In this document: piece after piece, positions 2,244-5,469 of the stretch
Layout of the letters: each line of letters opens with the position of its first letter
How positions within the stretch are numbered: position 1 is the stretch's first letter
Assembly: GCA_046760225.1 (NCBI GenBank)
Contig: JBHIDR010000039.1
Location: 1 to 5,659, forward strand
From: Candidatus Aenigmatarchaeota archaeon
GTDB taxonomy: Archaea; Aenigmatarchaeota; Aenigmatarchaeia; Aenigmatarchaeales; JACQIB01
Length of the DNA: 5,659 nucleotides
Direction: 5' to 3'
Notes under the pieces: model-generated
Seen by the model: only the letters and a program-made list of their open reading frames with translations
Database searches by the model: none
What the model was told of the DNA's origin: nothing
Made by a program: the position numbers and the translations under genes

Positions 2244-3408
2244 TCAAAGCATCCAAAACTGTCCTGGCTTTTTCTTCAGGGCTGCCTTTCCGATGCCTTC
2301 GAGATTCTTTTTGCTTATGTGTTCCCCGCCAAGCGAGACAATGAAGTCAAAAACGTTTTTTTCAGGTACAACAGACTTGATTTCAGGATAAAGAATGCCT
2401 CCTGCTCCGGGCGCCAGACTGTTGCTGATGACTGCAACTGCTTTGCAGTTTCCAAGTGCCTGTGAAATCTCCTTTTTTGGGAGCGGCCGTAGGCACCTCA
2501 GCTGGAGAAGCCCGGCCTTTACCTTCTTTTTTCTTAGGGAGTCCACAACAGCCTGAAGTGTTGTGCACATTGCTCCGAGGGCAACATACACGATGTCCGC
2601 ATCCTGTGTTTTATATTTTTCCACAACAGCATACTTCCTTCCAAACCTCTTGTTAAATTCACTGAAGATTTTGGGCATGAGCTGAAGGGCATTTAAGTGA
2701 GCCTTGTGCACCTGTGAACGGAATTTCATATAGCCTTCCATTACAGGGACGCCCATTGATATGGGCCTGTTCGCATCAAGCGATGTAACAGGCTTGTAGG
2801 GTGGTAGGAAGAGGTCGACCTGCTTTTGTTCAGGAACTTCTGTTGGCTCCCTTGTGAAGCTGAGTATGAAACCGTCCATGTTTACAATCGCTGGAAGAAG
2901 AACCTTGCTGTGTTCTGCAATCCTGAAGGAGAGTATTATGCTGTCAAGGACCTCTTGGTTGTTCTTGGCAAACAGCATTATCCAGCCTGAGTTGCGCAGG
3001 GCCATTATGTCATTGTGGTCGCTCCATAATGTTATTGGGGCTGAGAGACCACGCGAGCAGTTTGCCATCACAAGCGGCATCCTCATACCGCTGGCCACAT
3101 AGTGCATCTCGTGCATCAGCATCAGTCCCTGGGAGGAAGAAGCAGTGAATGTCCTTGCACCTGTTGCCTGGCTTGCTATTGCTGCAGATAGCACAGAGTG
3201 CTCTGATTCAACTGGCACGAACTCGCCATTCCATTTGCCTTCGGCCTTCCATTTTGCAAGGACCTCTATTATCTCGGTTTCCGCTAATCAGAGCCTAACT
3301 CGAGATTAATTGCGGTGTGATTGGGAAATTTGGAACAACCTGGGCCCTTGCCAGCCTTGCTCCCCATGCTGCTGCCTTGTTGCCGTCCATGAGCGTTTTT
3401 GCAGCCAT
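2244..3408 (-). CDS. porA: Pyruvate/2-ketoisovalerate:ferredoxin oxidoreductase alpha subunit, split into exon 1 (3408-3310, 33 aa) and exon 2 (3278-2244, 344 aa); 377 aa when joined
   Basis: Exon 1 reads MAAKTLMDGNKAAAWGARLARAQVVPNFPITPQ. Exon 2 continues TEIIEVLAKWKAEGKWNGEFVPVESEHS...GARTFTASSSQGLMLMHE...SRGLSAPITLWSDHND...DGFILS, in frame with the 324-aa ORF in the track, which lacks the real N-terminus. Confidence 0.92.
3279..3309 (-). other. 31-nt putative archaeal mRNA intron with a relaxed bulge-helix-bulge (BHL/HBh') motif
   Basis: Sense sequence TTAATCTCGAGTTAGGCTCTGATTAGCGGAA lies between codons Q33 and T34, shifts the frame and has an in-frame TAG (3297-3295). Fold: CCGC/GCGG 4-bp central helix, 3-nt bulges AA^U and AA^A, intron stem UAAUC/GAUUA plus GAGU/GCUC. 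Cutting after the second nt of each bulge gives CCG CAA ACC GAG (PQTE). Confidence 0.8.
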
Positions 3409-3420
3409 AACTAAATACTT

Positions 3421-3441
3421 GAAAACTATAAATATAAAAAA
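3421..3441. promoter_or_regulatory. Overlapping bidirectional TATA elements for porA (-) and the LAGLIDADG gene (+)
   Basis: gaaaacTATAAATATAAAAA: TATAAATA at 3427-3434 is 24-31 nt upstream of ATG 3458 with a purine-rich BRE-like GAAAAC. On the minus strand TTTATA at 3438-3433 is 25-30 nt upstream of the porA ATG at 3408. Confidence 0.6.
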
Positions 3442-3457
3442 CCATAAATGACATTAT

Positions 3458-4585
3458 ATGTATTTACGAAAATTATCAAATTTAACCAGAAAATACAATA
3501 TTCCAGAAGAATTTATTGTTCCAACTTACAGATACATTAAATCTCATTCTAAAAGGAGAAAGGACTTTGAAAAAAACTTCTTTAAGAGATTTTCAAAAAC
3601 GAAGAGGCAAAGAAGGTTTACATCAAAAAGAATATTGATCAAAAATAAAAGACATCCTGTTGAATTTGCAAGACTTAGGATGCATATAAGAGGCGACGGG
3701 GGTATAAGCAAAAGTGGATATGTATTTTATTACAATTCGGATAAGGCCTTGCTTAATGAATTTATAAACGATTCAAAAAAGGTATTTAAGAATACAAATG
3801 TTTGCATAGTTGGTGACAAGGTTTATCTTTCTAGGAATGTTTCAAGATTTTTTATAGAAAAATGTGGCTATATACCTGGATTAGAAATAACGCATAACTT
3901 GGGTGTAGATTTGGACATATTGAAATGTAATAAAATAATAAAATCTCAGGCAATACGTGCGTATTTTGACGATGAAGCGAGGTTTCATTCTAATGCTATT
4001 GAGATAGTCAGAACAAGAGACATGGGGTTTTTACCTGGGGATACATTGAAGAAGGCTATACAAAACCCGCGAAAATATCATAAATATGCTCCCAGATTCT
4101 TACATGATTTAAGGAGCATGTTAAAAGACCTGGAAATAGATACAGGTCTTCCGTTCGTTTACAAGGGAGACTTATTGATGCATGTTGATGTATACGGGTT
4201 CTTAAGACTGTCTGTTCCATGGAGGTTCTTAATAACAGGAGAAAGTAATTTAAGAAGGTATTACGAATTGGTAGGTTTTAAAAGTGAAAAAAAGATGAAA
4301 ATGCTTGGAGATTATCTGAGAAATATAAAGGTTCATAAAGCGAGAAAAAACAAATCAATAAAGCTTGCTATCAAAAATTGTAAGGATTTACAATCTAGAA
4401 GAGGTTTTATAACCGTAAGTTACCTTGCTGAATTTTCTAATAGAAGTGTAAGGCATTCTAGGAGGTGGATATACAAACTACTAGAGTTAAATAAAATAAA
4501 ACTCATTCAAGGTAGGACTGTATATCAGGACAATAAAGGTAGGATGTATAAAGGGTCGGACGAATTCAAATACAAATTGTGCTAA
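3458..4585 (+). CDS. Free-standing double-motif LAGLIDADG (DOD) homing endonuclease-like protein with C-terminal winged HTH
   Basis: 375 aa; motif 1 FARLRMHIRGDGGI (D80), motif 2 AIRAYFDDEARF (D171-E173), block-H-like RYYELVGFKSEKK (V272-F274); C-terminal GFITVSYLAEFSNRSVRHSRRWIYKLLELNKIK resembles a wHTH; no Hint splicing blocks. Sampled 60-nt lines are 25-37% GC versus 52-55% in porA. Confidence 0.82.
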   Translation: MYLRKLSNLTRKYNIPEEFIVPTYRYIKSHSKRRKDFEKNFFKRFSKTKRQRRFTSKRILIKNKRHPVEFARLRMHIRGDGGISKSGYVFYYNSDKALLNEFINDSKKVFKNTNVCIVGDKVYLSRNVSRFFIEKCGYIPGLEITHNLGVDLDILKCNKIIKSQAIRAYFDDEARFHSNAIEIVRTRDMGFLPGDTLKKAIQNPRKYHKYAPRFLHDLRSMLKDLEIDTGLPFVYKGDLLMHVDVYGFLRLSVPWRFLITGESNLRRYYELVGFKSEKKMKMLGDYLRNIKVHKARKNKSIKLAIKNCKDLQSRRGFITVSYLAEFSNRSVRHSRRWIYKLLELNKIKLIQGRTVYQDNKGRMYKGSDEFKYKLC

Positions 4586-4924
4586 TTAAGACTTCCTCCT
4601 GAATTCCTTTTTCACGTCCCTAATCTTGTCAATTGCCTTGACAGGGCAGTTTGCCCAGCAAAGGCCACAGCCCTTGCACATGTTGAAATCGAAAACAGGC
4701 TTGCCGACACTCTTTGCATCTGGAAAGGGCTTTTCCTTTTTCCATTTTATGGCCGAGTCAGGACAGAAAGCAAAGCATATTTTGCATGATATGCACTTGC
4801 TGTAATTTATTTTTGGCCTGAAAACCCTCCAGCCTCCCATATACTTTTTTGAGGAATTGCCTGCTTCAGCCACAAAGGGGATACCCTTTACATCCTCATA
4901 CTTTAGTTTCTTTTCCTCCTTCAT
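4586..4924 (-). CDS. porD: Oxidoreductase delta subunit (2x[4Fe-4S] ferredoxin-like)
   Basis: GGWRVFRP motif, CISCKICFAFCPD and CKGCGLCWANCP; start overlaps the porG stop (ATGA, 4924-4921). Confidence 0.92.
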   Translation of the reverse strand: MKEEKKLKYEDVKGIPFVAEAGNSSKKYMGGWRVFRPKINYSKCISCKICFAFCPDSAIKWKKEKPFPDAKSVGKPVFDFNMCKGCGLCWANCPVKAIDKIRDVKKEFRRKS

Positions 4925-5469
4925 CCGACCATCTCATAACATCTTTTTGCTGCCTCAATATTCTTTGGTATGGCCTCGGGGTGGCCTGCCTCTGTAAGCT
5001 CTATTCTTATGGCCTCTTCGAGCTTTTTGAAATCCATACCGAGAATTTTCACAGCAGCTCCCATGAGTGCTGCATTTGCAATGGGCTTTCCTATTAACTC
5101 AAGTGCAACCTCTGTTGCATCTATTGCATAGGCCTTGTTTCTTATCCTGAATTTTTTTCTGAAGAACGATGCTGGATTGGGGCTGTTCAGGAGAATAAAC
5201 GAGTTCCTCTTCAGCCCTTTCAACATCTTCTTGAAGTCCAATGTCTCATCGAATATTATTATGGTATCTGGCTCAAAAACATAGCCGCGCTCGAGCACGA
5301 TCTTTCTATCGCTTCGTACAAAGGATACTACAGGGGCTCCCCTCCTTTCAGCCCCGTACATTGCAAAATTCTGCGTATAGAAACCGGAAAGGAAATATGC
5401 GCGTGCAAGAAAGTTGGAAGACATCTTTATGCCCTGCCCGCCCCTGCCATGTATACGTACCTCAAACAT
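4921..5469 (-). CDS. porG: Oxidoreductase gamma subunit (PorG/PorC)
   Basis: EVRIHGRGGQG, YGAERRGAPVVSFVR, IDATEVALELIGKPIANAALMGA, NIEAAKRCYE. Confidence 0.93.
   Translation of the reverse strand: MFEVRIHGRGGQGIKMSSNFLARAYFLSGFYTQNFAMYGAERRGAPVVSFVRSDRKIVLERGYVFEPDTIIIFDETLDFKKMLKGLKRNSFILLNSPNPASFFRKKFRIRNKAYAIDATEVALELIGKPIANAALMGAAVKILGMDFKKLEEAIRIELTEAGHPEAIPKNIEAAKRCYEMVG

Follow-up and report, generated by a model that had tools for sequence, protein, structure and literature searches.

Genes for LAGLIDADG homing endonucleases inside archaeal rRNA introns are well known. Introns of the bulge-helix-bulge (BHB) type and LAGLIDADG enzymes form an established archaeal partnership and, as far as the account in PMC2738675 goes, the only well-documented introns of archaeal protein-coding genes are those of cbf5 in Crenarchaeota; in the same account, the route by which such introns arrive is unsettled because their small size leaves no room for a mobility gene. 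In phages, collaborative homing has been described for the free-standing endonuclease F-CphI and the psbA group I intron of cyanophage S-PM2, which contains no open reading frame (ORF) (Zeng, Bonocora and Shub 2009, via PMC6083498). Here we analyse a stretch of 5,659 nucleotides from a Candidatus Aenigmatarchaeota archaeon (the window), which is the entire contig C39 of genome bin G000. In the window, porA, which encodes the alpha subunit of a pyruvate/2-oxoacid:ferredoxin oxidoreductase according to Pfam, is interrupted by a 31-nt ORF-less mini-intron of the relaxed BHB type (3279-3309, complementary strand), recognised by frame repair and comparative geometry, and a free-standing gene for a predicted LAGLIDADG endonuclease (3458-4585, direct strand) lies next to it. 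The reading that we favour, on balance, is that both elements form a two-part selfish cassette at the 5' end of porA, which probably works like collaborative homing.

The locus resembles the F-CphI/psbA system in that a free-standing endonuclease gene adjoins a gene that is interrupted at a conserved coding site by an ORF-less intron, and by analogy the same logic could apply, the intron blocking self-cleavage and the endonuclease supplying the mobility of the intron. As far as that source describes the phage system, the differences are the host (a cellular archaeon instead of a phage), the intron (a 31-nt BHB intron that would be spliced by the host instead of a self-splicing group I ribozyme) and the enzyme (LAGLIDADG instead of Endo VII-like). 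Since the insert is a 31-nt BHB element and not a group I intron, the porA locus would work like the phage system without being a member of it. Two systems of phage T4 offer further parallels. In the first, the free-standing endonuclease of mobE mobilises flanking DNA including an immobile intron, that of nrdB with the defunct I-TevIII (PMC2790892); this system belongs to a phage and has an HNH enzyme and a group I intron, which the relevant part of that source does not likewise propose as an immunity device. In the second, a short non-coding insert in a conserved gene, the 50-nt bypass insert of gene 60, travels with the neighbouring free-standing endonuclease MobA (bioRxiv 10.1101/2022.08.31.505936). 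Both this insert and that of porA would be neutralised after transcription, although in gene 60, according to the sections of the preprint on this pair, by ribosomal bypass and not by RNA splicing, in a phage and beside an HNH-type enzyme. The cbf5 introns of Crenarchaeota are also short (16-44 bp), of the BHB type, located in a protein-coding gene, too small for a nuclease, and gained and lost along lineages; they differ in host gene and phylum from the DPANN-type host studied here, and a neighbouring endonuclease is not mentioned in the passages of the source that treat them (Watanabe et al. 2002; Yokobori et al. 2009, PMC2738675). Finally, the modelled fold of the endonuclease is the same LAGLIDADG fold as that of I-DmoI and I-Tsp061I, from rRNA BHB introns, and of PI-PfuI and TliVMA, from inteins. 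Unlike the genes of these enzymes, the gene of the window is not contained in the intron but located 149 nt off on the opposite strand, and its product has extra N- and C-terminal domains. A search of the full-text literature, with most subscription journals outside its scope, found no pair of a free-standing endonuclease and a BHB intron in an archaeal protein gene. By analogy, the locus looks like an archaeal counterpart of the phage cassettes composed of an endonuclease and a protective intron.

The porA gene extends from 2244 to 3408 on the complementary strand and consists of two exons and the insert. Exon 1 (3310-3408) has 33 codons, MAAKTL...NFPITPQ, and exon 2 (2244-3278) has 344 codons plus the stop, starting from T34 (TEIIE...) and matching the Pfam families POR_N (1.1e-47) and PFOR_II (1.3e-23). 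The unspliced frame reaches a stop four codons into the insert, and excision of the 31 nt gives a single 1134-nt frame encoding a PorA of 377 aa, with NFPITPQ^TEIIE across the joint (^ marks the splice position here and below). The split motif, P(I/V)TPQ-T, is the most conserved stretch nearby and is present in all 56 porA-like loci that were scored. The insert was found unchanged in contigs of four metagenome runs of one study, two of them possibly the source of this DNA, and 16 other genomes have an insert at the same codon junction of porA, which argues against an assembly artefact. An Rfam search of the window gave no match at the insert, the sole hit being a sub-threshold InvR inside the endonuclease gene.

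The window insert and its exon borders can be parsed as CCGC / AA^U / UAAUC...GAUUA / GCGG / AA^A. A central helix of 4 bp is formed between CCGC of exon 1 (3312-3315, in the Pro-Gln codons) and GCGG of the intron (3281-3284), and an intron stem of 5 bp pairs 3304-3308 with 3285-3289 (UAAUC:GAUUA). The 5' splice bulge takes two bases from exon 1 (3310-3311), and the 3' bulge is made of 3279-3280 and the exon base 3278. A cut after the second base of each bulge, which we take to be the behaviour of the splicing endonuclease, yields exactly the frame-restoring joint. When the window insert was shuffled with the exons kept, this geometry fitted in 3 of 20,000 trials. The 17 inserts found at the P(I/V)TPQ^T junction are unlike in sequence and range between 20 and 36 nt, and all of them show the 4-bp helix and two 3-nt bulges; the same shuffling applied to each of them gave the geometry in 0-8 of 20,000 trials. 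In 15 of the 17, an intron stem of 5-13 bp lies directly beside the bulge, and in the other two (L083 and L084) stems of 2-3 bp are followed by a 2x2 mismatch and 5-8 bp. Furthermore, there is covariation: at the third pair of the central helix, whichever base ends the Pro codon (G, U or A), the intron base opposite pairs with it in every case (G:C, G:U, U:G, U:A and A:U), and L078 and L080 differ by a compensatory change from U:A to C:G. The 5' bulge begins with A and the first base of exon 2 is A in all 22 mini-introns parsed. In porA, these A positions of the bulges are forced by the Gln and Thr codons; five other mini-intron genes show the same A positions, with AA^A as 3' bulge every time.

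Two results on the folding speak against a BHB intron. The single-sequence minimum free energy (MFE) fold of 3255-3335 on the complementary strand has -14.5 kcal/mol and a z of -0.65 in relation to shuffles, and prefers a different pairing, between the 5' part of the intron and exon 2. In addition, the outer exon-exon helix of the strict BHB (hBHBh') is absent, with flanking bases that pair at most once and inconsistently, so that the motif is a relaxed BHB. The comparison of the 17 inserts is decisive in our view, and on this comparative evidence at the sequence level the porA insert is a relaxed BHB-type intron.

Relaxed BHB motifs need an EndA of broad specificity, according to the part of PMC5829648 that deals with them. 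The genome bin encodes both the splicing endonuclease and the RNA ligase that BHB splicing requires. Two paralogues of the tRNA_int_endo family (EndA), with one gene between them, are encoded at 22791-23282 and 23748-24356 of contig C2 (1791-2282 and 2748-3356 of locus L104), with 85 and 66 bits; RtcB (497 bits) is encoded on contig C35, with the archease gene beside rtcB. One EndA paralogue has the sequence AREHTKWVVFA and the other KQGKVKWIVFA at the same place, without the His of the conserved EH(T/S)K stretch. Their sequences suggest that the pair consists of a catalytic and a structural subunit, as in the heteromeric splicing endonucleases of broad specificity. ARAGORN reported only 21 tRNA genes in G000, 13 of them with introns, some of which are doubtful, such as one of 693 nt in tRNA-Tyr; a lineage whose tRNA genes are heavily disrupted would show such a picture.

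The endonuclease gene sits between porD and porA, on the strand opposite to porA, and encodes 375 aa. Its start codon is 149 nt from the last intron base, and the stop codons of the endonuclease gene and porD abut, tail to tail, with no spacer. Between the divergent start codons of porA and the endonuclease gene there is a spacer of 49 nt (3409-3457) with a GC content of 16%, presumably a two-way archaeal promoter. The composition of the gene is foreign, with a GC content of 31.9% in relation to 43-50% in the neighbouring genes and 43.9% in the genome. Alignment and model place a first LAGLIDADG motif, RMHIRGDGGI, at residues 74-83 (3677-3706, direct strand) and a second, YFDDEARFH, at residues 169-177 (3962-3988, direct strand). 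The family is tiny, with 10 proteins found in 5.8 billion clusters at E <= 1e-3, and RMHIRGDGGI and YFDDE(A/G)RFH are invariant across the 10-member alignment: M75, I77, G79, D80, G81, G82 and I83 of the first motif and Y169, F170, D172, E173, R175, F176 and H177 of the second are constant in 10 of 10 sequences.

The AlphaFold model generated from the family alignment has a mean predicted local distance difference test (pLDDT) score of 89.6 and shows an N-terminal helical part (residues ~1-47), a double LAGLIDADG core (~68-260) and a C-terminal helical, winged-helix-like part (~277-375). The candidate catalytic residue D80 is located just past a helix formed by residues 68-78, the candidate catalytic residue E173 ends a helix formed by residues 159-173, and a strand comes after each of the two motif helices, in keeping with the LAGLIDADG arrangement. 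The top Foldseek matches in PDB were the TliVMA intein, PI-PfuI, I-Tsp061I and I-DmoI, with E between 1e-7 and 1e-4 (7qsu, 1.1e-7; 1dq3, 2.5e-6; 2dch, 4e-6; I-DmoI entries, ~1e-4), and the target-normalised TM-scores for the small enzymes were 0.55-0.63. The LAGLIDADG-derived regulator WhiA appeared at ranks 5 and 6. At the sequence level, the window protein reached 19.3 bits against Pfam LAGLIDADG_3, under the cut-off of 22.5, and distant paralogues found with the family profile exceed this cut-off with 23-36 bits; the family profile gave no match to PDB sequences at E <= 1, and NCBIfam gave weak hits only, to intein-bearing proteins. According to the motifs and the model, the product of 3458-4585 is a predicted single-chain, double-motif LAGLIDADG homing endonuclease.

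Association between both elements was studied in 56 porA-like loci, scored by direct reading of the motif. This replaced the continuity of tblastn matches, which had overlooked in-frame or short inserts in L031, L077, L083 and L084, and 12 other fetched loci fell outside the scoring, with a motif that is divergent, N-masked or beyond the contig. Presence of the endonuclease was established with the family profile against six-frame translations of loci L001-L096. Seven loci have the endonuclease gene and the intron, 10 have only the intron and 39 have neither, and no locus has the endonuclease gene beside an intronless porA (one-sided Fisher test 8.4e-5, uncorrected for kinship and ascertainment). 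The occurrence of the endonuclease is thus nested within that of the intron. Six loci of the close family were recovered: the window, L003 (genome G037), L044, L045 (genome G256), L046 and L047. All six have the gene immediately upstream of an intron-containing porA, in divergent orientation. In the seventh, L053 (genome G292), the place between porD and porA is taken by a distant paralogue (profile E 1.4e-31), and the porA there, itself a paralogue, has a 32-nt intron at the same junction. The neighbour on the far side is porD in five of the six close-family loci and two unrelated genes in L003; since it varies, the constant neighbour is the 5' end of porA.

The initial annotation of the window had described a low-GC LAGLIDADG gene 149 nt from the intron, in between porD and porA, and a BHB-type mini-intron in the most conserved codons of the neighbouring gene. 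Its coordinates proved exact, the GC content (31.9%) agrees, removal of the insert restores PorA at a motif shared by 56 of 56 loci, and the BHB type is borne out by the geometry common to the 17 inserts, with its compensatory pair changes. It had also expected co-occurrence across genomes, and had named an endonuclease next to a porA that has an unaltered site and no intron as the case that would speak against it: the endonuclease was found only with the intron (seven loci against none), the 39 intronless loci lack it, and the named case occurs in none of the seven endonuclease loci.

The endonuclease gene is rare, with three close matches among 371 genomes, and searches at the order and phylum levels added no genomes beyond the relatives and class sets. 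Its GC content ranges between 23 and 34% irrespective of that of the host flanks (29-55%). The distribution of both elements is scattered: explaining the three states on a maximum likelihood (ML) tree of 49 PorA sequences takes 10 changes, in relation to ~10.6 with shuffled labels, with L031 labelled as having none although it bears an intron, and L113 likewise although its site is off the contig. Genome G256, which has both parts, is nested among six relatives that have neither (G253, G254, G258, G257, G259 and G051); G352, with the intron only, is sister to the intronless G354, and G335, with the intron only, is sister to the intronless G344. When G256 was aligned with four of its relatives, the extra DNA consisted of the endonuclease block (~1.3 kb) and the 32-nt intron, besides two short gaps. 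Judged from these alignments, this is a joint gain of both parts in G256 with respect to its six relatives.

According to the cassette reading, exon-1 CCGC would pair in vivo with intron GCGG in the porA pre-mRNA and the host splicing endonuclease would cut both bulges, whereupon RtcB and archease would join the exons into an mRNA for PITPQTEIIE. The endonuclease would be transcribed divergently from porA out of their common 49-nt AT-rich spacer, and would cut intronless porA alleles in the DNA coding for PITPQ^TE. In its own genome the intron would split the target site, so that the carrier would be immune and porA would still work. A cut allele repaired from the carrier copy would gain, by co-conversion, the endonuclease gene along with exon 1 and the intron. 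In time, the endonuclease gene would decay and disappear, leaving an orphan intron behind. Such a cassette would explain the strict nesting, the joint gain in G256, the constant neighbour on the porA side and the position of the intron in the most conserved codons.

Further mini-introns and endonuclease paralogues were found outside porA. In L055 (contig C108 of genome G068), a 33-nt BHB-type insert (2765-2797) splits the AdoMet-synthetase gene at ELVERK^GIGHPD, with 2 of 20,000 shuffles fitting the geometry, and a paralogue of the endonuclease (1438-2694; LAGLIDADG_3, 36 bits) lies directly upstream of this gene on the same strand. In G000 itself (0.85 Mb) there are at least four mini-introns: porA, rtcB, the gene for aIF2-gamma and the gene for aEF2. 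The rtcB gene has a 32-nt insert at 1646-1677 of contig C35 (same positions in L103), with a UAGG:CCUA helix, the bulges AU^U and AA^A and a 7-bp stem; its removal rebuilds GGIGYDINCG (joint GGIG(Y)^DINCG), and the archease gene is just upstream. RtcB, the ligase that must seal BHB splice products, is therefore encoded by a gene split by its own mini-intron, and this gene contains, additionally, an in-frame SVNDFCRTLNG between PDGHEGY and FPIGG. The inserts of the aIF2-gamma gene (GTVGH^VDHGK; 19481-19511 of contig C3, 2482-2512 of L101) and of the aEF2 gene (GIVSH^IHHGK; 687-718 of contig C46 and of L102), both of the BHB type and 31-32 nt long, occupy the homologous spot of the GTPase P-loop. 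At 14-15 nt past each of them begins an intein with a LAGLIDADG_3 domain, right after GK; in both genes, then, mini-intron and intein fall within one homing-site length. In L046, where porA has a 29-nt intron, porG has a 30-nt BHB-type insert at YGAE^RRG (3831-3860, complementary strand), and porA has an in-frame intein at SLW^CDHSD (~521-1458, complementary strand) with the motifs LAGVADGDG and LGGIYDAEG, so that this por operon contains three or four selfish inserts. A scan of G000 for BHB geometry combined with frame repair gave 238 candidates in relation to 111 in a reversed-genome control, which is too noisy for a census, and we retained only candidates in which splicing recreates a known motif.

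Distant free-standing paralogues (profile E from 1e-43 to 1e-23) adjoin various conserved genes. In L054, L005 and L052, from three different genomes, they are directly upstream of the Nre gene; in L058 the paralogue is between the prefoldin and eIF6 genes; and the others are found at the genes for DNA ligase (L056), pyrB (L057) and an Lhr-type helicase (L051), or near rpS3 (L006). Applied to the endonuclease loci, the BHB-geometry scan gave numerous false hits; in L054, a 58-nt candidate that would join the frame of the endonuclease to that of Nre falls within the start of the Nre coding sequence and was therefore discarded. The initial annotation had proposed a scan for BHB inserts in genes beside homologous free-standing endonucleases. 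The AdoMet-synthetase intron is a case of this kind, but no intron is evident in the neighbours of most of the distant paralogues (Nre, eIF6/prefoldin, DNA ligase and pyrB), nor was one seen beside the paralogues at the Lhr-type helicase gene and near rpS3.

This last result weighs against the cassette, and so do several others. The mini-introns of rtcB and of the aIF2-gamma and aEF2 genes have no free-standing endonuclease beside them, and as mini-introns at conserved sites are common here, the link between endonuclease and intron could be looser. None of the 10 genomes with only the intron has a match to the endonuclease family at E <= 1e-20, genome-wide; they keep the intron with no family member, and the intron thus does not need the endonuclease protein. 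The endonuclease search itself supplied four of the seven endonuclease loci, relatives are not independent, and the counts do not cover the surroundings of up to five members of the family (P0002, P0004, P0006, P0007 and P0008). No co-conversion tract is visible in the sliding identity between G256 and four relatives, which is flat; these relatives are too diverged for that, with 60-84% DNA identity along porA. The GC content at third codon positions (GC3) of exon 1 is 0.50 in the window, not AT-rich, and shows a weak dip in G256 (0.41 in relation to 0.57-0.70, over 32 codons). Finally, the reads of the four DNA runs contain no joint that deletes the intron or the endonuclease gene, so that no ongoing polymorphism is seen. 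A joint from 2819 to 5333 was disregarded, having only 26 letters on one side.

We consider it unlikely, although it deserves the most attention among the alternatives, that the enzyme is a classical homing endonuclease with its target elsewhere (exon 1, the spacer or porD) and that the intron is carried along in the co-conversion tract with no role in immunity. Passive carriage of this kind would also predict the joint gain of both parts, and would agree with the endonuclease-free mini-introns at other conserved sites of the same genome and with the lack of an adjacent intron in most of the distant paralogues. In such a tract, however, linkage should decay, yet the intron is kept in seven of seven loci, including L053 and pairs of endonucleases that are 41-44% identical. 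Furthermore, the spacers and the genes on the far side vary from host to host and would be poor targets, and the motif split by the intron is the most conserved stretch nearby.

It is improbable that the two elements are independent, with mini-introns spreading by another route and the endonuclease landing upstream of porA for unrelated reasons. The ten intron-only genomes and the three or more other mini-introns of G000 would be expected in that case, and the introns reported by ARAGORN in 13 of 21 tRNA genes suggest a lineage rich in introns. Nevertheless, the intron is present in seven of seven loci with the endonuclease and in 10 of 49 without it, G256 gained both parts among six relatives with neither, and at the AdoMet-synthetase locus a paralogue is again paired with an intron.

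We also give a low probability to a domesticated LAGLIDADG protein that would no longer be an active nuclease and would act as a WhiA-like regulator of por or as a helper in relaxed-BHB splicing. WhiA combines a LAGLIDADG core with a C-terminal helix-turn-helix, and both its ranks in the fold search and the winged-helix-like C-terminal domain of the model point in this direction; a splicing helper is conceivable for an intron that has no outer helix. On the other hand, the acidic residues at both helix ends are invariant, and the gene is rare, scattered on the host tree and AT-rich with respect to its flanks, unlike a host regulator. The ten genomes that keep the intron in an open porA frame with no endonuclease argue against a helper in particular. 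We give hardly any credence to damage or artefact as the origin of the insert, whether as a pseudogene, through faulty assembly or as a recoding site: it breaks the frame and carries stop codons, but it is in the contigs of four runs, and the 16 other genomes have structured inserts at the exact junction, with both exons open and conserved.

Beyond the porA cassette, we put forward, more tentatively, a general route of intron gain: LAGLIDADG endonucleases, either free-standing (porA, AdoMet synthetase) or borne by inteins, might seed and spread BHB mini-introns in small archaea, each intron marking and immunising a homing site. The initial annotation had suggested the endonuclease as a route by which BHB introns invade archaeal protein genes. 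The comparative predictions of this proposal hold, but the ten intron-only genomes, the three or more lone mini-introns and the lack of a visible co-conversion tract indicate that an adjacent endonuclease is at most one route.

With respect to the arrival of introns too short to carry a mobility gene, the porA locus offers a concrete answer, in which the neighbouring endonuclease would supply mobility and the host-spliced insert immunity; 17 natural intron variants and seven endonuclease variants are at hand as material. If the cassette reading is true, collaborative homing is not restricted to the group I introns of phages but also occurs in cellular archaea and with protein-dependent splicing, the location of the inserts in the most conserved codons is explained, and new LAGLIDADG enzymes with known natural targets become available. 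Automatic annotation will call porA, rtcB and the aIF2-gamma and aEF2 genes broken, and metabolic reconstructions of DPANN archaea will be distorted as a result.

The remaining genes of the window are porB (50-940, direct strand), a radical-SAM gene (937-2001, complementary strand), porD (4586-4924, complementary strand), encoding the delta subunit, a 2x[4Fe-4S] ferredoxin recognised by Pfam Fer4 families, and porG (4921-5469, complementary strand), encoding the gamma subunit (Pfam POR, 1.5e-35). The sigma-70 and terminator scan of the window is not applicable to archaea. Genome bin G000 comprises 851,505 bases in 83 contigs and is 83% complete. At E <= 1e-20, no porA was found in the six other genomes of the source's family (80-92% complete), and the nearest PorA sequences come from a different family within the order. 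Either a binning error affecting the 5.7-kb contig or a lateral acquisition of the por genes might account for this. Public records of close relatives are labelled as Woesearchaeota or merely as archaeon.

Positions 3428-3460 of the window, which cover the endonuclease start codon and the adjacent spacer, are identical in 33 of 33 nt to positions 2629-2661 of L003, from genome G037, and despite these 33 nt of identical DNA the endonuclease proteins of the window and G037 are merely 58% identical. Contigs of the public runs break at 3432-3457, and loose ends there (at 3428) run on as G037-type sequence, which indicates that both organisms live in the same samples.

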